Shown here one piece after another: positions 1,764 to 61,874 of a stretch of 64,000 nucleotides of DNA. A model generated the notes under the pieces. That model had not been told where the DNA came from, did no database searches, and saw nothing but the letters and a program-made list of their open reading frames with translations. The position numbers and the translations under genes are program-made. The stretch comes from a virus (Duplodnaviria; Caudoviricetes): the IMG/VR virus record IMGVR_UViG_2885360797_000005, one strand, 5' to 3'. Positions within the stretch are counted from its first letter, which is position 1. Each line of letters opens with the position of its first letter.

Positions 1764-1991
1764 ATGAATAGAAACTACAACTCAATCAAGGCTCTTGTTG
1801 GCGTAACCAACATCATCATCACTTCCGAACTTAGATACTCGGAGTTGCACGCCCTCGTTGAAAAATCTGCTGTCCTCGAAAATGGCATTCTCACAATCAA
1901 GGTCAAGGAATGCACCCTCGGCACTGAAGAGATAAACGCCCTTGCAAAACTGGGAGGAAAATATGTCGCATTTGATTTGACCGAATGCTAA
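1764..1991 (+). CDS. Small hypothetical protein (moron-like), convergent with the integrase
   Basis: 75-aa ORF with its own TATCTTTG element at 1729-1736. Confidence 0.55.
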   Translation: MNRNYNSIKALVGVTNIIITSELRYSELHALVEKSAVLENGILTIKVKECTLGTEEINALAKLGGKYVAFDLTEC

Positions 1992-3481
1992 AACCCTTTC
2001 CCTTTCGTGCGCTCATACACCGCCTCGCGGTCAGCGTCCACGTCCTTTATGCGAAACTGCACGGCACACCCGGTCGGGATTGTGTCGGGCAACTGCCCGG
2101 CAAGCCGGGCGATGACCTCATCAACGGTCCCGAAGCCGATGTCGCTGACCTCGGAAAGAACCTCTCCGCGAAAGTAGGCACGGGCATAGACCATCCGCTT
2201 GGGAGAAAGCCTGAACAACTTGTCGGCAGGCTCATCGACCCCTCGCGCCATTCCCTGCTTGCTCTTTGCCGTGGAGAAAAAGATAAAGTCAATCACTTTG
2301 GCATTCAACTCCCAGGCCGGAGTGAAATCAATCTTGATGTAGCCTCGCGTTATCGTATGCCCATGCGAATGATTCATACCAAACGCCACCTCCGCAATGC
2401 TCGCGCCACAGTCGTTCTGCGCCACAGTACCCCAAGTGTGACGGAACGTGTATGCGCTGTACCAACGCTCCTTCGGTATCCCCATGCTCTTGCAGAGCTG
2501 CTTTATGCCATTGTTCACATTCGCGTTGAACGAGTCCGAGGACGTGAACCGCTTGTGAAAGTTCAGCAAGTAGGGGTCGTCAGCCTCGGCCAGATATTTC
2601 TCAACTAAAGGCTGAATGATAGGCTCGACACGAATCTCAAAGTAAGCGTCATCGGCGCGGAACTTCTTCGTCTTGGCTCTCTTGTAGCAGATACAGCCGT
2701 TTCGGTAATCCTCCTTGCGCAGCTCGTAGATGTCGACCGTGTTCATGCCTGCGAGACACAGCACCATCTTCGCCACATCGCGCCCCAGTTCGGGCAACGG
2801 ATCGACCATGCGTGTATCCGGGAGAGGTGCGGTAAAGAACAGCCTGCAATCCTCCGGGCTAATAGCTTTCTTGACCGTGCGGTCACTCTGTGGAATCTTT
2901 ACCTTTCCCCACGGATTGACCTTTATGCGCAGATTGCCGTTGTCATAGTCATTGTACTCCTCAACCGCAGCCTTGAACACCTGCCTCATACACACCGGGT
3001 ACATCTCCTTTGCCCTGTGCGTATGCTCCAGCGACTGAATCCACCTCGTTATCTGCGTTGAGGTAAGTTGCGCGAACATGATTTTGTTCGTGCCATAGAA
3101 CCGCTCCATGTGTCCGAGAGCCTGCCGATAGTTCTGCGCCGTGCGCAACTGGTACCGGTCCACCATGCGGTCGATATGGTGGCGTGCGTAGTCGCTGAAG
3201 CAGATGTCAGCGTCACCTTGTGTCACATACTCGATAATCTGACGTACTGTCCACTTTGCGCAATCCTTGCGGTTGAGTTTGTCAGTATAGAGCAATATCA
3301 TTCTCGCACAATACTCGTTCACGAAAGGGTCATTGATATTGCCGTGCTTGTCCACCATCTGCTTGGTGACAATCTTGTCGGTCTTGATATATCCCGGCTT
3401 GGTGTTCTGTGTCACCCGAATATAGACCTGATAGAACCCGTCCTTGCGCGGAGTTCTTACAACTGCTTTGAATGTTGCCAT
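1988..3481 (-). CDS. Tyrosine recombinase/phage integrase with a C-terminal extension
   Basis: Arm-binding-like N-terminus, SAM-like domain, YKRAKT, YTFRHTW, MNH and GY catalytic motifs. Confidence 0.93.
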   Translation of the reverse strand: MATFKAVVRTPRKDGFYQVYIRVTQNTKPGYIKTDKIVTKQMVDKHGNINDPFVNEYCARMILLYTDKLNRKDCAKWTVRQIIEYVTQGDADICFSDYARHHIDRMVDRYQLRTAQNYRQALGHMERFYGTNKIMFAQLTSTQITRWIQSLEHTHRAKEMYPVCMRQVFKAAVEEYNDYDNGNLRIKVNPWGKVKIPQSDRTVKKAISPEDCRLFFTAPLPDTRMVDPLPELGRDVAKMVLCLAGMNTVDIYELRKEDYRNGCICYKRAKTKKFRADDAYFEIRVEPIIQPLVEKYLAEADDPYLLNFHKRFTSSDSFNANVNNGIKQLCKSMGIPKERWYSAYTFRHTWGTVAQNDCGASIAEVAFGMNHSHGHTITRGYIKIDFTPAWELNAKVIDFIFFSTAKSKQGMARGVDEPADKLFRLSPKRMVYARAYFRGEVLSEVSDIGFGTVDEVIARLAGQLPDTIPTGCAVQFRIKDVDADREAVYERTKGKGF

Positions 3482-8721: not shown

Positions 8722-8867
8722 AAATGCCAATTCTAAGCAAAAACGCCAAACCAATAGCCACTAAACATCATATTAGCTTTGCAAATACGCATTTCTTATG
8801 TAAATATCACAATCTAATAGATGAAATACCGTTTATTTTATGTAACTTTGCCTCAAAAGTAAATGAC

Positions 8868-10076
8868 ATGATAGCTGAAATTAAGTTTAAGAACATGTAC
8901 TCATTCAAGAATGAGACTATTCTAAGTTTTGAGGCCGACAAGAGTGAAGATATGGCATCCTACCACGTAGTTGAGCTAGCTCCTGACGTGAGGCTGCTCA
9001 AAGTAGCTATTGTATATGGAGCCAATGCTTCGGGCAAAAGCAATATTGTGAAGGTGTGCGATTTCATCAAATCGTTCATCACACACACACCGCTCAACAA
9101 AGCAGAGCAAGTAGGTGTAGTGCCTTTTTTGTTGAATAAGACAACTCCGTCCCAATTATCGGAGTTCTCTATCTCATTCTACATTGTCCAAGACGACAAA
9201 GCTGTACACTATGTTTACAGCGCATCGCTGGATAGAGCCCATGTAGCCAATGAATCCTTGATATTTTATCCAAGCCAGCAACCGGCTACAATTTTTGAGC
9301 GTACCACAGAAAACAATGTGTCCGCTATCAAATTTGGTCAGAAATTAAAGGTAAGCAACGCTGTTAAAGAAGAAATCACCCTAAAATGTCTGCCCAATAT
9401 GTCTGTGTTCTCAGCATATATGCAGGTAAACACGAGCATCAAGGAGATTGAAACGGTGCTGAACTATCTGAATGAACGTATGATGTCAGCCGTTACTCCC
9501 ATGGTATCACTAAATGCTTTTGCAGAGAAGTCTATCAAGGAAGAGGTGGCTAAGGATTATATTTTACGTTATTTGCAAGAAGCAGATTTCAATATTTCCA
9601 ATATTTCCACCAAAGAGCAAGAGACAAAGAAAGGAATGATAAACTACACCCTGTTTCAGCACAAGGTTTCAGACCAGGCAGGAGAATCGAATTTTTACGA
9701 TTTCCCAGAAATGTTTGAGTCCGATGGCACATTGCGCACCTTTGGCATGGCAGCGCATATCCAGCATATTTTGAGACAGAATGCGTTTTTGGCTATTGAT
9801 GAAGTGGATAATTCGCTACACCCAAAATTGATAGAGTACATCATTGAGCGTTTCTTGAAAGAATCCCAACAAGCACAACTACTACTTACAACCCACTATG
9901 ATGGTTTGTTGGGCGAAGAAGACCTGCTTAGAAAGGACACCATCTGGTTCACAGAGAAAGGACCTGAAGGTGTTAGCGAGCTTTACCCTCTAACCGATTT
10001 CAAGGGTCTCAACAGAATCAGCTCGCTACAGAAAGCCTATAAGTTCGGGAAATTCGGTGCGGTTCCTAACCTCTAA
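8868..10076 (+). CDS. RloA/AbiLi-like AAA ATPase (AAA_21)
   Basis: YGANASGKSN, ESDGT, IDEVDNSLHP, TTH, YKFGKFGAVP; TAACTTTG promoter element at 8843-8850. Confidence 0.88.
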   Translation: MIAEIKFKNMYSFKNETILSFEADKSEDMASYHVVELAPDVRLLKVAIVYGANASGKSNIVKVCDFIKSFITHTPLNKAEQVGVVPFLLNKTTPSQLSEFSISFYIVQDDKAVHYVYSASLDRAHVANESLIFYPSQQPATIFERTTENNVSAIKFGQKLKVSNAVKEEITLKCLPNMSVFSAYMQVNTSIKEIETVLNYLNERMMSAVTPMVSLNAFAEKSIKEEVAKDYILRYLQEADFNISNISTKEQETKKGMINYTLFQHKVSDQAGESNFYDFPEMFESDGTLRTFGMAAHIQHILRQNAFLAIDEVDNSLHPKLIEYIIERFLKESQQAQLLLTTHYDGLLGEEDLLRKDTIWFTEKGPEGVSELYPLTDFKGLNRISSLQKAYKFGKFGAVPNL

Positions 10077-10087
10077 ACTAGAATAAT

Positions 10088-10660
10088 ATGAGAACAGCAA
10101 GAAAAAATGTTGCGACCAGACAGGTCATACATATTGTTGGTGAGGGACTGACCGAGTTATTCTATTTCAGCCACCTGAAGAAACTTCTAGGTTATCGGTA
10201 TGCTATATCTCCACGTCTGTTTGAGAACAACAGCATAGAGAAGATTGAGAAGAAGATAAAGGAACTTCTGAGTGAAGACGTCTTTGTCATCTGCGTATTT
10301 GATGCGGATGTAAGCCGTCGTTCCGATACCGAGAATCGAAAGATGGCAGCCTTGAAGAAGCGCTACGAAAAGAATCAGAATGTCATTCTTTGCGATAGCT
10401 TGCAATCTATAGAATACTGGTTCTTGCTTCATTACGAAGATACTTGCCGTCATTTCCAAGACTCTGCCGCCACAGAAAAGGCTCTAAAGAAATATGTTCC
10501 GTCATACGACAAATCCCGGAAGTATCTGGAAAAAGAGAAATGGGTGGCAGACATGATTTCAGATGACAAAATGAAGAATGCCTGTAATCTGGCAGAAAAA
10601 TACCAAGGCAGAGATTCGTATAGTGAAATATACAAGGCAATCCGAAAAATCGAAGAATAA
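10088..10660 (+). CDS. rloB: RloB-like (AbiLii) TOPRIM-fold protein
   Basis: GEGLTELFYF, CVFDAD, IEYWFLLHY motifs; paired with the upstream ATPase. Confidence 0.85.
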   Translation: MRTARKNVATRQVIHIVGEGLTELFYFSHLKKLLGYRYAISPRLFENNSIEKIEKKIKELLSEDVFVICVFDADVSRRSDTENRKMAALKKRYEKNQNVILCDSLQSIEYWFLLHYEDTCRHFQDSAATEKALKKYVPSYDKSRKYLEKEKWVADMISDDKMKNACNLAEKYQGRDSYSEIYKAIRKIEE

Positions 10661-10672
10661 GACCAAATCGCC

Positions 10673-11389
10673 ATGGTACAGAAATTTTTGCAACAATACA
10701 AAGAAGCCTTCGGGGATGCAGCCCCACTTCCAATAGTTTTCGGCTATAGCCATGCGGCAGCCACGGAAGTACACAAAGTGCCACGCTGTATGATTGGTGC
10801 CATCCGTAAGGTTTGCAACGGAGAAGCTTTGACCTTGACCGCCGACAATGTACTTTGCGGTGGTGGAAGTCTATACACAAGATTTGCCCCCATGCAGGAG
10901 CGAATACCTATGTTCGTCTCTGAAACGGAGCGCTACAAACAGACCCCCGAACAAGTAAAAGAGTACATACGGAATCTGAATATAAGCCTTGTAAAGAAGC
11001 CATACCTCAATTTCATCAGAATGGATCAGCTTGCCACTCTTGATGAAATGGAAGGCATCTTGTTTTTCGCTACCCCGGATATGCTATCCGGTTTATGCTC
11101 ATGGGCATTTTATGACAACAATGCGTATGATGCCGTATGCACAAAGTTCGCATCAGGATGTTGCAGCATCGTGACCTTTGCCGTACAAGAGAATCAGAAA
11201 CAAGGGCGAAGCTGCTTCATCGGAATGCTTGACCCCTCTGCTCGTCCGTTAGTCCCTGCCAATGAACTGACGTTTGTAATCCCAATCAACCGTTTCCAAG
11301 AAATGTCGGAGACTATGGAACATTCCGCATTATTCCGCAAAGCATACTCCATCGTTAAGAAACGAATAAACGGAGAGATAGGGAAATAA
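10673..11389 (+). CDS. DUF169-family protein
   Basis: RC...G...CGGG and SGC...G.LD.SAR patterns. Confidence 0.7.
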   Translation: MVQKFLQQYKEAFGDAAPLPIVFGYSHAAATEVHKVPRCMIGAIRKVCNGEALTLTADNVLCGGGSLYTRFAPMQERIPMFVSETERYKQTPEQVKEYIRNLNISLVKKPYLNFIRMDQLATLDEMEGILFFATPDMLSGLCSWAFYDNNAYDAVCTKFASGCCSIVTFAVQENQKQGRSCFIGMLDPSARPLVPANELTFVIPINRFQEMSETMEHSALFRKAYSIVKKRINGEIGK

Positions 11390-11794: not shown

Positions 11795-11979
11795 CTCCAA
11801 ATATATGCCTTTCTTATTCTTGGGAAAATGCTATTCCACCAACAGATGTCCATCGCATAAGCCAAGTATTTGTAGCGAGTCCAACAAACTTCGATATAAT
11901 CCAATGAATTACAGATTGTTCCCATATTTAACATCTTGTGGCATTATCGTTATCCGCCTACCTTTACGGAAAAACAACT

Positions 11980-12225
11980 ATGATGAAGCACAAAGATTTC
12001 ACAGGAATAATCCCGGAGCAGACCTATTCGGTGAGTGAGGCGGCACGATACTTCGGTGTTCACCGCTGTACTGTCTATGCCTATATCAACCATCCCACAA
12101 AACCTTTGCCATTCGTGAGGTTGCCCGATAAAATCAAGACTGTCTTCCGTGGGATTGATTTGATTGCTTACAAAGCAGCCGGTCTCCCGAAGAGAGGACG
12201 CAAACGACAAGGGGACACCCATTGA
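11980..12225 (+). CDS. HTH_17/excisionase-like DNA-binding protein
   Basis: YSVSEAARYFGVHRCTVYAYI. Confidence 0.78.
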   Translation: MMKHKDFTGIIPEQTYSVSEAARYFGVHRCTVYAYINHPTKPLPFVRLPDKIKTVFRGIDLIAYKAAGLPKRGRKRQGDTH

Positions 12226-12249
12226 TAAGCATCCCCGGTAACCTTCCAT

Positions 12250-12660
12250 TCAGTTAAGTCCATTCTTGGTGAATGCTGATCGGAAGGGCTTTTTACCCGA
12301 CAACTCGGACAAGTCGCAAGCCAACAGCCACGCCTTGTTTCTTATATCTTCCATATCCGCTACAGCTTGCAGATACCAGGACGAGTCCATCGCCCCGGAT
12401 TTTATCATCCATTCTTTAGCACACGTGGCGGGATTGATGGCATCCACAAAAGAAACGACCTCATTCGTAAGGCTGCAAATCTTATCATCCTTGACCTCAG
12501 CGGTGAAACTGAAAGGCACACCACTGAGGGTTTTCCGATGGAAGTCATAACAGCGGATGCCGTTCTTTATACTTACAAACACATTCCAGCCATTCTTGGT
12601 TGCAATACCATAGATTTTACTTTCTACCATTAGTCTCTTCTTTAGTGGTTCATTCTTCAT
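12250..12660 (-). CDS. Hypothetical protein, paralogue of 12650..13024
   Basis: Shared NGW.V...T..G..FSF.A..KDD pattern; start uncertain (12660 or 12630). Confidence 0.65.
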   Translation of the reverse strand: MKNEPLKKRLMVESKIYGIATKNGWNVFVSIKNGIRCYDFHRKTLSGVPFSFTAEVKDDKICSLTNEVVSFVDAINPATCAKEWMIKSGAMDSSWYLQAVADMEDIRNKAWLLACDLSELSGKKPFRSAFTKNGLN

Positions 12661-13024
12661 CAATTTCTCTGATGGCATCAAGCAAACTTTCAATGTTTCT
12701 CTCTGCCGCCTCCATATCTTCAAGCACATCCCTCATACGATATGGCGCACCATTTGTTCCGTGCCCGTTATCGTCAAGCCATAGATAGGCTTCCGAATCC
12801 ACATCAAAGCCTTCATAGTATTCTTCCATATCAGCCACCAAAGAGTCAAGGCTATCATCCTTCATCCTTGCCGAAAAGGAGAAGTCTTGCCCTGCAGGAG
12901 TGTATTTGGAAAACTCAAAAACGACAATGCCTTTCTCTTGGTCGGTGTCAGAACTCACACTCCATCCGTTGCTTTCGGCACATTCAGTTATCTTATCAAT
13001 GATATTATGCTTGTTCATATTCAT
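12650..13024 (-). CDS. Acidic hypothetical protein of the leading-region operon
   Basis: 124 aa, very Asp/Glu-rich; FSKYTPAGQDFSF and NGAPY motifs. Confidence 0.75.
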   Translation of the reverse strand: MNMNKHNIIDKITECAESNGWSVSSDTDQEKGIVVFEFSKYTPAGQDFSFSARMKDDSLDSLVADMEEYYEGFDVDSEAYLWLDDNGHGTNGAPYRMRDVLEDMEAAERNIESLLDAIREIDEE

Positions 13025-13079
13025 ATATATAATGGTTATGTCAGCCGTAACGGGGTAGCTACGGCTGACGAATTAGTTG

Positions 13080-13439
13080 TTATTCGAGGTTGGCAAGAAA
13101 GCGTTGCAACCTATTGTCCTTCAACTGGCTCAACTTGGTAGGTTGGAAATTCTCCTGTTGCCGGACTTGCAGCTTGCCGAAGCCTTGTGCCGTATAGTCA
13201 AGCTCCACCTCCGAAAGCTCGTTCAGTGAAATGTAGCCGTATTCATCTTCCATCATTCCGATAACGATACCAAAGAGAATGGTGTCCTTTCCATCTGTTT
13301 CTCCTTCAAGAATGTACCACCGGATTGAGCCGAGAGCGAATATCGCGCGACAAACTGCTTCTTTTCCTTTGCCATCCTGGGAATAAAGCGGAAAATCTTT
13401 TAAGGTTTCCGCTAATTGGGGTGTCATTAACCTGCACAT
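13080..13439 (-). CDS. DUF2958-like protein
   Basis: PLYSQDG...WYILEG...LFGIV...EYGYISLNEL. Confidence 0.75.
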   Translation of the reverse strand: MCRLMTPQLAETLKDFPLYSQDGKGKEAVCRAIFALGSIRWYILEGETDGKDTILFGIVIGMMEDEYGYISLNELSEVELDYTAQGFGKLQVRQQENFQPTKLSQLKDNRLQRFLANLE

Positions 13440-13440
13440 C

Positions 13441-13608
13441 TCAATCAAATTCTATTTCGTCCTCATAAACATCTATCTCTGCGCCACTGCTGAACTGCAC
13501 AGTAAAACCTTTTGCAGTCTTGGCTACTATCGTACCACGATGATAACCACGCCATGGGGTTATCAGCTCGCATTGCCGCCCGTATTCCGGAAAATCTTTC
13601 TCGTCCAT
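13441..13608 (-). CDS. Small hypothetical protein (SH3/KOW-like)
   Basis: 55-aa ORF tightly packed in the operon. Confidence 0.6.
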   Translation of the reverse strand: MDEKDFPEYGRQCELITPWRGYHRGTIVAKTAKGFTVQFSSGAEIDVYEDEIEFD

Positions 13609-13609
13609 A

Positions 13610-13930
13610 TCAACCAACTTTAGGGTTAGTAAATTCGGGGTCATAGATAAGCTCACACTCAACCAAATGTCCGTATGCCTCGGATGCAAGTTTGGATGCC
13701 CACTCGTTCCGTTGGTCATAACATCCTTTTTGATAGTTGTATGCCAACTGGCGCATAAAGCCAAGGAACACCTTGAACATCTGTTGCTGAAGGTAACGGT
13801 GCGCTCTGGTCATTTCTCTGCCTGTCTGGTTGGCTGACACCATAACACCATTCGTAAAGTTCGCAAATTGCTTGGCGAACTCTTTGTCTCTCTCGGAGGT
13901 CATAGCTCCTGATAATTCTTGATAGTCCAT
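13610..13930 (-). CDS. Hypothetical protein, first gene after hairpin 1
   Basis: 106 aa; HRYLQQQMF and YDQRNE motifs. Confidence 0.7.
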   Translation of the reverse strand: MDYQELSGAMTSERDKEFAKQFANFTNGVMVSANQTGREMTRAHRYLQQQMFKVFLGFMRQLAYNYQKGCYDQRNEWASKLASEAYGHLVECELIYDPEFTNPKVG

Positions 13931-13985
13931 AATCCTTTATATTTTTAAGTCTCAATTCTTTTCCCTTTTGTTTGAAGCCTTTTGG

Positions 13986-14208
13986 CTTCTTGGTCGGGAG
14001 AACCGTTTTTCGTGCGGTAATCCCTGCGGACAACAGGGAGGATTAGGCAAGTGTGAGGTCAGAGAGCGCGACGGAATACCCAAATTTTGGAGGCACGAGA
14101 AAATTTGTGGAAGGCTGCCGGAAAGCCCTCCGACTGAAAGCGAAGCGTCACTTGACGTTCCTCCTGTCCGCAGTACCTTTGCACGGGAAAATGGTCCTGA
14201 CCAAGAAG
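13986..14208 (+). promoter_or_regulatory. Long imperfect hairpin 1: putative ssDNA (Frpo/ssi-like) promoter
   Basis: Nested inverted repeats; CTTG(14151)-N19-TACCTTTG(14174-14181) in the 3' arm; homologous to 38328-38533. Confidence 0.65.
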
Positions 14209-14941
14209 AGCAAAACGAGCAATCGACAATAGAAAAAGATTTTTCCGTAAGGAACGGAACAGACGTTTTCAGATTAGACTACAAAGAAAAACAGTGATTC
14301 TGCTATTGCAAGTGAAACCTGCAACAGAAAAATCACCGACTAATATTCTCAGACTAACAAGTTTTCTAAAAATCCGATGTTGATGTGAAAGCCTTTGAAG
14401 TGGAACTTGTGTAGCCTCAAAGGATTTCTCTTTAACATCGGAATGGAGTTATCCACAAATAGCATGAACCTATCGGCTGAACTTACTTGGTGTAGTATAC
14501 ACGGAGGAAGTTAGACGGGATGTAGAACTGATTCATAGTCAGTTCATAAATAAACTATTTGTAACAAAATTATCATTGGCCTATAATTTTATATTCCTGA
14601 TATTATTGCAATAAGACCAACTGAGATACTTGCCAGTATATAAATCTTCATACATGCAAAGTTATGAATTATCATTCGAATATGACAGCGGAATTTATCT
14701 TAACCTCCTTGAAAAACAGCCCCATCCAGACTTTTATAACGAAATGGGGCAATATAAGCAAAGTTCCAGTAAAAACAAAAGGAATTCCGAAAGAATATTT
14801 GTATCTTTGCAAATGAATGGTAACTGCATTAAAATGACCTAATAGAGAAAATAAAACGATACATTAAACTCCTTTGCTGTCTTTATAGGCTTGGTCAGCC
14901 TTGCAGGGACTGCTAGGAGTTTTTTTTGTTTATTATAGAAT

Positions 14942-36243: not shown

Positions 36244-37521
36244 TTATGCTGTTGCCCTTTTTGCCTCCAAGAAGCGGTGGGCATTATCATTCACCAACTT
36301 GATAATCCTATCGTGGTATTCAGTGTTGCTGTTGCAAACTCCACGACTTTGTACTACTTTCCCTTGGCTCAAACTGAACTCCACGGTCTCGATGCGGTTT
36401 CCTTGATGGTCGTGAGCCGATAGAATAACAGAGTCAGTCTTGGCATAGTATTCGCATTGGAAAACACAATGCTTCATCTTGTTACCCTCTTCCTTGTAAG
36501 CCTCCAGCGAATCCAATACGGAAATTTCTATATCTTCATCGCTGATGACAATGCCGAAGAAGCAGGACTTGTTCCTGTAAAACTCGGCTTCGTGTGCCTT
36601 GGCTTTTGCCATCCGCTCCATATCCCTACGCTTTTGCTCAATGGCATCCGCTTTCTTCAACCAATGGTCATGCCCGGTTTTCAAGTTTATCGGACAGATA
36701 TACTTGACATTACGGATGTCCTTACCGCACTTGTCAAGCAAGCGGATGATGTCGCACCAAGTACCGAAGTCCTCAATCCGATAATGATGCCGTGAAGCTA
36801 CTTTGTACGACTGCCAACAGTTATTAAGGTCGAAAGCGTGATAGACAAAATACTCAACCGCCTTGTAGTCTCTCGTTTTCATCATTGTTTCCATCCGGTG
36901 GTCAGATAAGAGAGATTTCATCAGTTTGAGCGGATGGCAATCGGGCAATTTGCCTTTCATTCCGTTCCGTCTCAATTCGGGAAGGGCAGAATAATAAGGA
37001 TAGATATAAGTATCGGATATGACCATATAGATATCAGACAATCTCCTCAACTCTATCGGACTGGCAAAACTAAAGCGGTCTTGATAATAACCTCTGGTTT
37101 TCATTCTTGAAGTAACCGCCACTTGTCCTTTGGCATTGAGCCACAAACGGCATATTTCATAATTATAGAAATCCATCGGTTTCCCTTTGTGGTAAATGAC
37201 CGTCAAAAGGAATACTCGCTGCACTTGCAATCCGTCAATCGCTTCAAGGGTAGAAAAGTAGCTCCTCTCCTGGTACTTGCGCTTCAACGTATCGGTTACT
37301 TGCAAGCGGTGTCCGCAATGAGGACAACGTACAAACTTACCTTTTCCCTCATAATCAAACTTTTCTCCGCAATCGCCACACGTACATTTACGGTTTGATG
37401 TACGGAACGCAATGTGTTTCACGACGTTTCTTATTGCCCACTCCACGGCTTTAGAGCCGATGGCGGTCAGCTTCTCATTGGAAGCTGCCACCAATTTCTC
37501 AAACTTGTTTCTTGGTTTCAT
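36244..37521 (-). CDS. PcfJ-domain protein
   Basis: Zn-finger CGDC...CPHC; EEGNKMKHCV...ETVEFSL...QSRGVCN. Confidence 0.88.
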   Translation of the reverse strand: MKPRNKFEKLVAASNEKLTAIGSKAVEWAIRNVVKHIAFRTSNRKCTCGDCGEKFDYEGKGKFVRCPHCGHRLQVTDTLKRKYQERSYFSTLEAIDGLQVQRVFLLTVIYHKGKPMDFYNYEICRLWLNAKGQVAVTSRMKTRGYYQDRFSFASPIELRRLSDIYMVISDTYIYPYYSALPELRRNGMKGKLPDCHPLKLMKSLLSDHRMETMMKTRDYKAVEYFVYHAFDLNNCWQSYKVASRHHYRIEDFGTWCDIIRLLDKCGKDIRNVKYICPINLKTGHDHWLKKADAIEQKRRDMERMAKAKAHEAEFYRNKSCFFGIVISDEDIEISVLDSLEAYKEEGNKMKHCVFQCEYYAKTDSVILSAHDHQGNRIETVEFSLSQGKVVQSRGVCNSNTEYHDRIIKLVNDNAHRFLEAKRATA

Positions 37522-37525
37522 ACGC

Positions 37526-37948
37526 TTAAAAATCAAATAGTGATAACTCGGTTTGTTGGGGAACTTTGGGTTTGCTTGGCTTGGGTCGGGAGTTTCTGAC
37601 TTGTATCTTGCGAAACTCCTCCTCTTGATAGCGTTTGAGGGCGATGTCCCTTTGTTCAGCCTTTTCCTCCTCTGTCAAGTCTATATGGTGGTTCACTACA
37701 ACATTACAAGATAATGGCTCGCCAATTATCAATGTTGGCTCTTCTGCTGCATGGACTGCCATAGAGAACACCTCCATATCGGAAAAACCGCAACAACCTG
37801 AATGTTGAACTTCATTGAAAATATAAGTTACAATATCATCAATGCTACGTGCTGTAGCTTCATACTTGGCACGAAAAAGTTCATCCTCCTTTGCTCGGTT
37901 ATCAAGGTAGTTTTTGATAATCTCTTTAAATTGCTCTGTTCCTTTCAT
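37526..37948 (-). CDS. PcfK-like protein
   Basis: MKGTEQFKEIIKNYL...SGCCGFSD.EVFSMAVH...LSLFDF. Confidence 0.85.
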   Translation of the reverse strand: MKGTEQFKEIIKNYLDNRAKEDELFRAKYEATARSIDDIVTYIFNEVQHSGCCGFSDMEVFSMAVHAAEEPTLIIGEPLSCNVVVNHHIDLTEEEKAEQRDIALKRYQEEEFRKIQVRNSRPKPSKPKVPQQTELSLFDF

Positions 37949-37978
37949 ATATGTTCGTTTTAAGTTGTTATACATTTA

Positions 37979-38284
37979 CTATCCTATCGGCAACCTCTCT
38001 AAAAGTTCCTCCAATGGGATGGTATTGATGTCCTCACTGCGGAACAACACTTTCCACTCCGGCTTAACCAACAAGCGATGGAAACACTCAACCGAAAAGC
38101 CTTTATTATTAGAGTAGCACTCTATCAAAGCGAAGTTCTTGCCATCCTTGCGGATATGAGCATAATCGGGAGCCATACCGAAAGCGCATCTGCGGATGTC
38201 CTCTCTGTTCCACAACAAGGTCAGTTCGTAAACATTCCCTTTGAGGTTTATCTTTTCCTCTCTGTCTTTAAGTGTGATTGCCAT
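37979..38284 (-). CDS. Hypothetical protein, first gene after hairpin 2
   Basis: ATG at 38284 (MAITLKD...); the longer ORF-track start runs through the hairpin. Confidence 0.65.
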   Translation of the reverse strand: MAITLKDREEKINLKGNVYELTLLWNREDIRRCAFGMAPDYAHIRKDGKNFALIECYSNNKGFSVECFHRLLVKPEWKVLFRSEDINTIPLEELLERLPIG

Positions 38285-38327
38285 ATGTTCTAATTTTTTC
38301 CCTTTTGTTTGAAGCCTTTTGGCTTCT

Positions 38328-38533
38328 CGCTTCCGGGTGATTTTTACGATGCCATCACACGGAGGAACAAGGGGCGTAAGGCAAATGTGGCAAGCGGAAA
38401 GAAAGAGACGGAATACCCAATTTGGCACAAATTGCGGAAGGCTGCCGTCTGCTTTCCGTGCAGACAAGAGCAGCGGCATTTGCTGTCGGCACCGCCCTCC
38501 GTTACTTTGTATCGGGAAATAGAACCGGGAGCG
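38328..38533 (+). promoter_or_regulatory. Long imperfect hairpin 2: putative ssDNA promoter
   Basis: Nested inverted repeats; TTTG(38479)-N19-TTACTTTG(38502-38509); shares GACGGAATACCCAA and GGAAGGCTGCCG with hairpin 1. Confidence 0.65.
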
Positions 38534-59340: not shown

Positions 59341-61874
59341 GTAGGCTCGACACAAAGCGCGTTACCGCATTGCTGCGGCACGTTTCCACGTGTCTGCCCC
59401 CGAACCGGACGTACATGTCTCCATGTATCCGGCTCTCCAGTGGTTTAACTCTATGTGTCATAAGCAAGTGTCTCATTTCTTTTTCTGATTGATGATTTCC
59501 ATACAAGATTTACATACTGCAAGCGTCTTTCTCCTGCGTCTGAGCATCTGCCTACCCCAAGGGGTATCGTTGTCAAGCTCAGACAGCAACCGCACATGGT
59601 GCATATGGAGCTGTTGGTTTTCTTGACCGCATAACTCACACTTTCCCGCTTTCAGACGGTTGATTAGAGTCGTTTTCGGCAATTGCTCCGCGACTGCCTC
59701 AAGATGTGTCTGCTCGTCATAGCCCTTGGGCTTCCTTGCGAATCCCATGTTGTAGAGGACGGTCTCCTTGGTGGTTCCGTTCTTATCCTTATGGGTAATC
59801 ACGAATCTACCTTTCTTGGAGTAGCGTCTTTTGACCTTGGATTTGGTCAGGTTCAGCTTTTGGGCCAGCGTTTTGCATAGACTGTATTCCATGATGTACG
59901 CGAATGACGAACATTGTCTTGAACAGTTATTGGCGATGCAGTAGTAATTGTAGAATCCTCTTATCTCCGAATTGAACCTGCTGAGGATAATGTGCGGTTC
60001 CATTGCCAGCATCTTTGTACGCGATTTCGGCATCCACACGGTTTTGCCGTCCAACTCACGGTATGTGACGGCATCGTGCTTTTCAAGAGCCTTTCTCACG
60101 GTCTCGGAATTTACAAGCAACTGCACTTTTCCTCTATGGTTGCGTTGGAGAATGCCCCTGCTGTTTCTGCTCATCATGTCGGAGTTCAGCACCGTAATAT
60201 CATAGCCAAGGAATTTTGCGGTTTCCTCGCAATGGGTTATCAAGGTCTTTTCGGGCGACAGTTCGAGTTTGAGGCAATCACGCATATGTGCAGTGATGTC
60301 TGCCTTGATGTTCTCGCAGTCTGTCTTTGACCCGATTACGCCTATAAGGAAATCGTCAGCATACCTTGTATATACGATACGTCGGTAATCTTCGTCCATA
60401 TCGAGCTTGCAGGGAATGGTTCTCAGTTGAGCCTGCATGACGGCAAGCCGTTCCGTCATGTCAGCCCTCTTGTTTTCATCTGTCTCTTGGCGCAGTTTGC
60501 GTCTCAACGCACAAGTTTTGGTATTGAGATTGAAATACGTCGGATTGCGCTTGCGACCTACACCTCTGTTAAAAGTCTTGGCATAATCTTCCATGTATCT
60601 GTCGAAGCGGTTAAGGTAGATATTGGCAAGTATCGGGGAGATAATGCCACCTTGGGGTGTGCCGTGATAGGATTCATGGAATTTCCAATCCTCGACATAT
60701 CCTGCATTGAGGAACTTACGAATCATACGGAGAAAACGCTCGTCGGAAATCCGCTCACGCAGGATGTCGATGAGTGTGTCGTGGTCGATATTGTCGAAGA
60801 AGCCTTTTATGTCACCTTCGACAAACCACTTCACACCCGTGAACGTCCTTTGAATCTGAGTCAGTGCGGTATGGCAGCTCTTGTGAGGTCTGAAGCCATG
60901 GGAGCGGTCGGAGAACGCACCCTCATAGATGGCTTGCAGAATCATCCGCGCTACCTCCTGCACAAGCTTGTCACTCCATGACGGGATTCCGAGAGGACGC
61001 AGTTTCCCGTTTTTCTTCGGGATATATGTCCTCTTTGCAGGATGTGGGGTATAGGTCTCATCCTTGAGACTTTCAATCAGTCGCTTAATCTTCGCGAGGC
61101 TCATGCCGTCCATGGTCTCCCCGTCAGTGCCGGGCGTCATGTTGCCCTGCTTGACTTTGAGCCTCTCGTAAGCGGCATAATACATCTCCTCATTGAAGAG
61201 CAAGCGGTAGAGACGCTCGTACTTATAGTCCGAGGTCTTGCTGTGTGAACACAGAGTGTCGATTATCAACTGTGGATTTCTCATACGTCTCTCACGTCTT
61301 CTACGGTTGATAACTGACAGCCACCTGCCACCCTTCGCCATGTACGCGGCTTTCCCGCGCTCGGACTACTATGGTGGCTCCGTTGCCATGTCGGGTATTC
61401 ATGACCTTTGTCAATAGCCTTGCGGCATCCCGATTTAGGCAATCTTCGCTTAGATATATAGCAACAGGCACAGCATACTGTCGGATACGACTTTCGTTCT
61501 TCTATCCGCTTATTGCGGTCGCTTCGGGACTGACTCGTTGCCTTGCGCGAAAATGCAGGTCGCGCAGGTGTCCCGATACGGCGTATGTAACTGCTTTCCG
61601 CCGTAGCCACTTCTAAGGCCGCTGAACTATCGTTCAACCAATCAGGCTTTATCCTCATGTATGCCTTTCTTCCTTGCACCTCAGTCGCGGATTTGCAGTT
61701 ATCCGACTCGGCACTTTTCAGACATGCTGTTTTCCTCCCTTGGTTTCCCGCAGAAGTGTCCGCTCCGTCACCACAAGGGTGGCAGAGAGTAAGTCTGATG
61801 GAAGTAGGTAAAATTGAGTCCATACCTAAACTATTGCTATTTAGTTATTTGCTATATATCCTATACGAACGCAC
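59341..61874 (-). mobile_element. Group II intron (2534 nt, LtrB-like)
   Basis: 5' GTGCG at 61874; domain V GAGCCGGATACATGGAGACATGTACGTCCGGTTC; domain VI ending ...AGCCTAC at 59341; IEP inside. Confidence 0.93.
59473..61284 (-). CDS. ltrA: Intron-encoded reverse transcriptase/maturase/endonuclease
   Basis: PKKNGKLRPLGIP, GDIKGFFD, GTPQGG, RYADDF, X domain, CELC...HHV...C..C endonuclease-like domain. Confidence 0.93.
   Translation of the reverse strand: MRNPQLIIDTLCSHSKTSDYKYERLYRLLFNEEMYYAAYERLKVKQGNMTPGTDGETMDGMSLAKIKRLIESLKDETYTPHPAKRTYIPKKNGKLRPLGIPSWSDKLVQEVARMILQAIYEGAFSDRSHGFRPHKSCHTALTQIQRTFTGVKWFVEGDIKGFFDNIDHDTLIDILRERISDERFLRMIRKFLNAGYVEDWKFHESYHGTPQGGIISPILANIYLNRFDRYMEDYAKTFNRGVGRKRNPTYFNLNTKTCALRRKLRQETDENKRADMTERLAVMQAQLRTIPCKLDMDEDYRRIVYTRYADDFLIGVIGSKTDCENIKADITAHMRDCLKLELSPEKTLITHCEETAKFLGYDITVLNSDMMSRNSRGILQRNHRGKVQLLVNSETVRKALEKHDAVTYRELDGKTVWMPKSRTKMLAMEPHIILSRFNSEIRGFYNYYCIANNCSRQCSSFAYIMEYSLCKTLAQKLNLTKSKVKRRYSKKGRFVITHKDKNGTTKETVLYNMGFARKPKGYDEQTHLEAVAEQLPKTTLINRLKAGKCELCGQENQQLHMHHVRLLSELDNDTPWGRQMLRRRRKTLAVCKSCMEIINQKKK

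Follow-up and report, generated by a model that had tools for sequence, protein, structure and literature searches.

Integrative conjugative elements (ICEs) of Bacteroidales are the main vehicles of gene flow in the human gut, antibiotic resistance included. The stretch of DNA analysed here—64,000 nucleotides, referred to below as the window—is such an element. Its minus strand carries genes for TraG, TraM, a DUF4138 TraN-like protein, a coupling protein, TraX, ArdC, and a Toprim/DUF3991 primase; just past the right end, and on the same strand, lie genes for ParA, a PF03432 relaxase, a NikA-like protein, and an integrase, after which chromosomal genes follow. A group II intron (59341-61341; Rfam RF00029 domain V match, 622-aa ORF) sits on the minus strand among the upstream tra genes. 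Two similar tyrosine recombinases of ~500 aa are also encoded on the minus strand, ~66 kb apart (1988-3481 of the window and L132:3916-5418), and since the one on the left could be part of a neighbouring element, the left end of the ICE is uncertain.

Two long hairpins, here called copy 1 and copy 2, stand before minus-strand operons, and between these operons the + strand carries defence cargo (type I restriction-modification with a recombinase, McrBC, and others). All defence-type cargo lies on that strand, at 8724-11389 and 14942-36169—it comprises AAA_21/RloB/DUF169 genes, the type I system with its recombinase and a spare hsdS, an EVE-McrBC system, a RecD2-like helicase, and a PD-(D/E)XK nuclease.

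Copy 1 occupies 13986-14208 and is an imperfect hairpin with a 5' arm at ~13986-14060, an apical domain, and a 3' arm at ~14140-14208. The arm pairings described in the initial annotation are present in the sequence: CTTCTTGGTC (13986-13995) pairs with GACCAAGAAG (14199-14208), ACCGTTTT.CGTGC (14002-14015) with GCACG..AAAATGGT (14181-14195), CTGCGGACA (14025-14033) with TGTCCGCAG (14165-14173), and CAAGTG (14048-14053) with CACTTG (14149-14154). When folded as single-stranded DNA (ssDNA), the + strand of copy 1 forms one long hairpin of -53.8 kcal/mol, compared with -34.4 +/- 3.2 kcal/mol for dinucleotide shuffles (z -6.1; 0/200 as stable); the minus strand folds at -48.5 kcal/mol (z -4.1).

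The 3' arm carries two promoter-like boxes, arranged on the + strand as CTTG-N19-TACCTTTG, just as first annotated. The -33 element CTTG (14151-14154) is separated by exactly 19 nt from the -7 element TACCTTTG (14174-14181). The TTG of the former (14152-14154) is paired with the CAA of the 5' arm (14048-14050); in the latter the first T is paired, the A-n-C-T-T region forms an internal loop, and the G is paired again. Further along the same, non-template arm lies a conserved G/A-AAAA run (14186-14191), the predicted start region, whose template partner in copy 1 is a T-run in the 5' arm (14006-14009). The apical module (14071-14120, + strand) consists of a stem, an internal loop in which AATA faces AAGGCTG, and a stem-loop; it served as the source of our search pattern. 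The two-box motif TTG-N18-21-TAnnTTTG is rare, with only 3 occurrences on both strands together in the whole 64-kb window.

Copy 2 is a homologous hairpin at approximately 38328-38533, recognised by alignment and fold, and in the same + orientation as copy 1. It has a -33 TTTG (38479-38482), a 19-nt spacer, a -7 variant TTACTTTG (38502-38509) with one mismatch to TAnnTTTG, and an apical module at 38408-38448, all on the + strand. The + strand of copy 2 folds at -42.6 (z -2.8; 0/200 shuffles as stable); the minus strand reaches only -36 (z -1.6; 12/200 shuffles), and the long hairpin is absent from its fold.

On the minus strand, a start codon follows each hairpin at a distance of 40-60 nt (13930 for copy 1, 38284 for copy 2), and the two have a conserved leader in common. 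In copy 1 this leader of the predicted transcript spans 13931-13985 on the minus strand and contains a small hairpin, GAAGCC-N4-GGCTTC (13974-13989), and a purine run, GGGAAAA (the complement of 13960-13966). Operon 1, behind copy 1 on the minus strand (11950-13930), consists of five small genes (ORFs 13610-13930, 13080-13448, 12650-13024, 12250-12729, and 11950-12249); its first gene has no family match, and its second has a weak DUF2958 match only. Operon 2, behind copy 2 on the same strand (36244-38284), consists of a 101-aa gene (37979-38284) followed by PcfK (37526-37975) and PcfJ (36244-37536), the last two assigned with Pfam. A protein atlas was uninformative for the first genes of both operons.

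Hairpin homologues and covarying stems

The apical-core pattern matched more than 116 places in contigs representing one genome per species. Matches at L104, L122, and L024 were excluded as chance or partial matches, and 102 instances remain; there are thus at least 102 distinct hairpin homologues, which fall into 12 sequence subfamilies. Nearly all of the source titles shown are Bacteroidales—Bacteroides, Phocaeicola, Prevotella and relatives, Muribaculaceae, and Parabacteroides. One hairpin contig is labelled as an Oscillospiraceae MAG (L034, CAYNXA010000117.1); this is probably a mis-binned Bacteroidales contig, and possibly a transfer event.

A BLAST search of 400 genomes of the order returned only two true relatives, and the apical-core pattern was far more productive. 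A second pattern, built from the leader and the -7 box only, recovered further members in which the apical core differs in sequence and has the same shape. Because members found independently of the core keep its shape, the core can be regarded as a real conserved module rather than a search artefact. Variants of its internal loop include AATG/AAAGTTT and AAGACTT, as compared with AATA facing AAGGCTG. The module may be a factor binding site, a folding nucleus, or an UP-like element.

Covariation was measured on a structure-blind MAFFT alignment, with the structure voted from single-sequence folds; with RNAalifold, the global MAFFT alignment yielded two helices only, and the voted structure was used instead. 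The initial annotation had named a lack of covariation as evidence against its reading, and the stems do covary: 57/75 pairs show compensatory changes, many of them with three or more pair types (for example GC 32, CG 27, and UA 21). Standard pairs fill 84.1% of cells, compared with 36.6-44.3% when partners are slid by 1-3 columns, and both-sided changes occur in 1093 cells, compared with 237-343 for slid partners. A covariation score of 0.342 was obtained, compared with 0.104 at most, and 0/500 shuffles reach 0.342.

The + strand is the more stable one in 84/105 instances with DNA parameters and in 83/105 with RNA parameters. Helix cells with G.T outnumber those with A.C across the alignment (352 vs 239), as do site-by-subfamily occurrences (114 vs 68); the count of isolated mismatches is nearly balanced (47 G.T vs 37 A.C), and one subfamily is reversed. 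Taken together, the wobble and stability data give mild support to the + strand as the folded strand.

Covarying structure would fit RNA equally well, and the hairpin could be read as a structured 5' leader—with a role in regulation, processing, or stability—of an operon transcribed from further upstream or by read-through, its internal loop binding a protein or RNA. In favour of this reading, the hairpin is always found just upstream of a gene, with a conserved leader; the gene upstream of copy 2 is co-directional, making read-through possible, and the wobble asymmetry is weak. Several observations speak against this reading, which we consider unlikely: the + strand folds better even with RNA parameters, the minus strand of copy 2 lacks the hairpin, and a search of the hairpin region against Rfam 15 gave nothing at the gathering score, with chance-level matches only at E up to 10. 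The promoter boxes and the genes behind the hairpin, described below, also count against an RNA leader.

Putative promoter boxes, leader, and downstream genes

The primary sigma factor of Bacteroides, sigma-ABfr, has a published consensus of TAnnTTTG at -7 and TTTG at -33, and the TTG-N19-TAnnTTTG boxes of the hairpin 3' arm agree with it (PMC7366714). In instances anchored on the -7 box, its base frequencies are T 1.00, A 0.82, n, C 0.87, T 1.00, T 1.00, T 0.88, and G 1.00. The TTG exactly 19 nt upstream occurs at 0.76/0.94/0.73 under the same anchoring and carries 2.0/2.0/1.9 bits per alignment column. The A-run lies 13-17 nt past the first T of the -7 box, with frequencies of 0.81-0.99 at 14-17 nt, and the T-run columns are nearly invariant. 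An exact TAnnTTTG stands at the expected + strand place in 72/92 homologues, and the full two-box motif in 68/92. The spacing of 19 nt is near the lower limit of what is usual for sigma-ABfr promoters. Counting against a promoter, the -7 boxes of copy 2 and its relatives are imperfect (TTACTTTG, TTACTTCG).

The two boxes differ in how they are held by the fold. The -33 TTG is paired (unpaired probability 0.06-0.08), and its CAA partner on the 5' arm is conserved as well, at 1.7-1.8 bits. Conservation of the -7 box is confined to the 3' arm; the T at its start and the G at its end take part in pairing, and the A-n-C-T-T between them is unpaired with a probability of 0.58-0.70, within a loop whose length is 5 nt in 102/102 instances. 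The opposing stretch of the 5' arm is variable, being 6-8 nt in 97/102 instances (3-9 nt overall), with no position above 0.4 bits. The mismatched bubble at -7 proposed in the initial annotation is therefore real and conserved across homologues, as a fixed loop facing a variable stretch, and so are the fixed spacing of the boxes on the 3' arm and the combination of a paired -33 with an unpaired -7.

In the open complex of sigma-70-family factors, the upstream element is read as duplex and the downstream element as a single non-template strand after a paired fork T. By analogy, the combination of a paired -33 and a looped -7 looks like a mimic of a fork-junction, or pre-melted, promoter. Duplex sigma-ABfr promoters have the same two boxes and a purine-rich start region downstream. 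Unlike these, the hairpin has its boxes on the strand opposite to the genes it would serve and inside a covarying stem that holds -7 unpaired.

The position of the boxes also sets a direction. Lying on the 3' arm, they point to the hairpin base, which makes the 5' arm the template; a polymerase would exit along the + strand to lower coordinates, making RNA of minus-strand sense. In 93/102 instances a minus-strand gene starts at most 200 nt beyond the 5' arm, so that the sequence geometry fits the suggested exit off the 5' arm into the operon. Frpo logic—that of the single-strand promoter of the F plasmid—further predicts that the minus-strand operon has no conserved duplex promoter of its own, and this is what was found: within 500 nt upstream of the hairpin on the minus strand, the full motif occurs in 1/92 homologues, and any -7 box in 21/92, at scattered positions. 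The same result weighs against an RNA leader transcribed from upstream, for which a sigma consensus at exact 19-nt spacing on the opposite strand would moreover be a coincidence.

In duplex DNA the boxes of the hairpin could also fire rightwards, and we count this against a single-strand promoter. The hairpin could then be an ordinary duplex promoter on the + strand, with an inverted repeat that serves as an operator, cruciform, or protein-binding site unrelated to ssDNA; the boxes match sigma-ABfr well in duplex too, and hsdM, which comes next to the right of copy 1 (14942), is a + strand gene. We find this highly improbable. The right flank is not conserved, the nearest ORF to the right is on the + strand in 46 cases and on the minus strand in 40, and in copy 2 it is antisense; conservation instead runs leftwards into the leader and gene start. 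A rightward promoter also leaves 200 nt of covarying stem, and the template-side mismatch opposite -7, unexplained. The 730-nt non-coding stretch between copy 1 and hsdM (14208-14940) is what rightward duplex firing would transcribe.

The genes behind the hairpin belong to more than 15 unrelated families, which also argues against an RNA leader. Most are small and of no known family; others are PcfK, PcfJ, weak DUF2958 matches, and a 650-aa ParB-like protein, and, as a point against the promoter reading, searches of the driven genes against known anti-defence, SSB, or PsiB families gave no match. Other genomes repeat the order of 101-aa gene, PcfK, and PcfJ behind hairpins of the copy-2 type. 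A single hairpin subfamily can stand before as many as 8 first-gene families, and one gene family is found behind 6 hairpin subfamilies—a mixture that, judged from sequence, fits a portable general promoter cassette better than a gene-specific RNA leader. Two further candidate identities were rejected: an intrinsic terminator, for want of a T-run, and a MITE-like repeat, given the stable position before start codons with a conserved leader.

Candidate oriT and the predicted transferred strand

The relaxase is usually the last to enter the recipient (PMC11541004); the template strand of the relaxase is therefore the predicted transferred strand. In the window ICE the relaxase, NikA-like, and tra genes are all on the minus strand, which makes the + strand the template for the relaxase operon. 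In 11/11 ICE loci with an identifiable relaxase (16 hairpins, from the window and ten other genomes), the hairpin and the relaxase coding sequence are on opposite strands, although most of these loci are syntenic and hence not independent. All hairpins within one ICE are on the same strand. In one of the 11 loci, on contig 1 of genome G407, TraG is found on the other strand and the hairpin follows the relaxase, 7.6 kb away.

A candidate oriT lies ~2.8 kb past the right end of the window (L132:2767-2817) and ~50-100 nt upstream of the NikA-like gene; it consists of a 19-nt inverted repeat and then ACAACTTGCT on the + strand. This block of inverted repeat and ACAACTTGCT has the same orientation in three diverged ICEs, including those of G406 and G407. 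Origins of the RP4 type are laid out in the order relaxase side, inverted repeat, and nick region, and by analogy the polarity of the candidate appears to match transfer of the + strand. ATCCTG was considered as a nick marker and dropped, as it is not conserved between ICEs. The possibility that the hairpin itself is the oriT was rejected, the candidate being elsewhere, beside the relaxase.

From gene order and the analogy with known origins, we infer that the + strand is transferred, with the tra genes and relaxase entering last. The candidate oriT is separated from copy 1 by ~13 kb and from copy 2 by ~37 kb, which places copy 2 outside a classical leading region and counts against the reading as a single-strand promoter; given + strand polarity, the two hairpins would enter ~13 kb and ~37 kb after the predicted nick. 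The strand of the defence cargo is not that of the conjugation and hairpin-driven genes, and the cargo hence could not be read from the predicted transferred strand.

A second ICE type, with a TraG ~50% identical, has a different arrangement. It is located at G404:C1:1313000-1393000 (loci L151-L154), with similar places in G403, G409, G401, and G402. Here TraG and the coupling protein are encoded on the strand that bears the hairpins, the hairpin-driven genes converge on the tra operon, and a 27-kb block containing ParA, a ParB-like gene, and a 1658-aa methylase-helicase is co-oriented with the hairpin-driven operons. A relaxase was sought in this type and none was found by PF03432 at E<=10, Pfam on 30 ORFs, phmmer, PDB, or BLASTP. 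In G402 the two nearest relaxase genes share the strand of the hairpins, from which they are separated by 45-60 kb with transposase insertions; if either is cognate, it would count against the strand model.

Predicted mechanism and related systems

Single-strand promoters let conjugative plasmids express anti-defence and establishment genes ahead of the host reaction. To our knowledge, they have been demonstrated only in enterobacterial (E. coli-type) plasmids with sigma-70 boxes, and in the literature searched we found no paper tying Frpo or 'ssDNA promoter' to Bacteroides or Bacteroidota in this sense. Frpo of F and ssi3 of ColIb-P9 are stem-loops that rebuild promoter boxes on the entering strand (PMC9849209, PMC11541004); they turn on leading genes before second-strand synthesis, and F has two copies, Frpo1 and Frpo2 (PMC9849209). 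A wide survey of Frpo-like elements used sigma-70 boxes and left Bacteroidota unmentioned (PMC11541004).

The Bacteroidales hairpin resembles Frpo1, Frpo2, and ssi3 in several ways. It is a long, imperfect stem-loop of one strand; boxes for the primary sigma factor of the host are rebuilt on one arm; transcription would leave the hairpin into small genes for which the folded strand is the template; each element has more than one copy; and the predicted folded strand is also the predicted transferred strand. It differs in using the -33 TTG and -7 TAnnTTTG of sigma-ABfr in place of the -35 and -10 of sigma-70, in its conserved apical module, in being ICE-borne and 13-37 kb from the candidate oriT, and in its driven genes, which are not ssb, psiB, or ardA; promoter activity is predicted here from sequence. 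There is also no detectable sequence similarity to Frpo or ssi3—blastn against PLSDB (72,556 plasmids, which should include F-type) found no similar DNA—and we therefore regard the hairpin as an analogue of these elements rather than a relative.

The initial annotation had interpreted copy 1 in terms of Frpo logic, and every sequence-level test we ran supported that interpretation. On this basis, and by analogy rather than homology, we think it likely that the hairpin is an Frpo-like promoter that acts in single-stranded DNA.

Other folded elements have a comparable anatomy. The ssoA-type origins and the minus-strand origin of filamentous phages are folded ssDNA promoter mimics recognised by host RNA polymerase. 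The Bacteroidales hairpin could be an RNA-polymerase-dependent single-strand origin of this kind, yielding a short primer only, with downstream expression incidental; the promoter-mimic anatomy is the same, the ICE needs conversion to duplex DNA in the recipient, and Frpo has also been described as serving primer synthesis, to judge from the title of Masai and Arai 1997 (cited in PMC11541004). However, whereas the known origins make a short primer without a coupled reading frame, the hairpin is tightly coupled in 93/102 instances to a leader and a start codon, about 60-80 nt past the hairpin. At least two copies are present per ICE, each before an operon; the leader has no terminator-like T-run after the start region; and the ICE encodes its own primases. 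An origin in this narrow sense seems quite improbable to us, and use of the same hairpin RNA as a primer alongside gene expression is possible.

As a single-strand promoter, the hairpin would work as follows. The ICE would enter the recipient as a single + strand, and 13986-14208 would snap back into the long hairpin, presenting a duplex -33 (TTG/CAA) to RNA polymerase with the Bacteroidota primary sigma factor. The non-template A-n-C-T-T of -7 would be already unpaired and its first T paired, like the upstream fork of an open complex. Initiation would occur near the conserved A-run with the 5' arm as template, and the polymerase would run off the hairpin at its base and follow the + strand to lower coordinates; the transcript would consist of the conserved leader, ~75-80 nt, and then the mRNA of the small genes at 13930-11950. 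Copy 2 would act likewise for the operon of the 101-aa gene, PcfK, and PcfJ. Once the complementary strand is made, the hairpin would be lost and the boxes would point the other way—expression of the operon should then stop. The start site, the dependence on ssDNA, the timing, and the function of the driven genes (establishment or anti-defence) are predictions of this model.

A broader proposal, to which we give an even chance, is that these hairpins form a phylum-specific class of single-strand promoters that mimic the fork-junction open complex of sigma-ABfr. They would define a 'zygotic' regulon not seen before—dozens of uncharacterised small-gene families, PcfK/PcfJ, and ParB-like genes—expressed only during the minutes that precede second-strand synthesis, with the apical module as the place where a factor of the host or the ICE docks and links this burst to establishment. 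If true, the hairpin would provide a sequence signature that marks the transferred strand and early genes of Bacteroidales ICEs, many small uncharacterised proteins would be nominated as establishment or anti-defence factors, and the same physical trick would be seen to serve a very different sigma factor. The conservation of -7 on one arm is a natural test of how sigma-ABfr reads non-template DNA.

The leader, whose columns hardly vary across the 102 instances, has features of its own. Its small hairpin overlaps the base of the long hairpin, and the GGGAAAA run lies 14-30 nt before the AUG (13931-13989 for copy 1 and 38285-38326 for copy 2); the leader hairpin and the long hairpin may compete.
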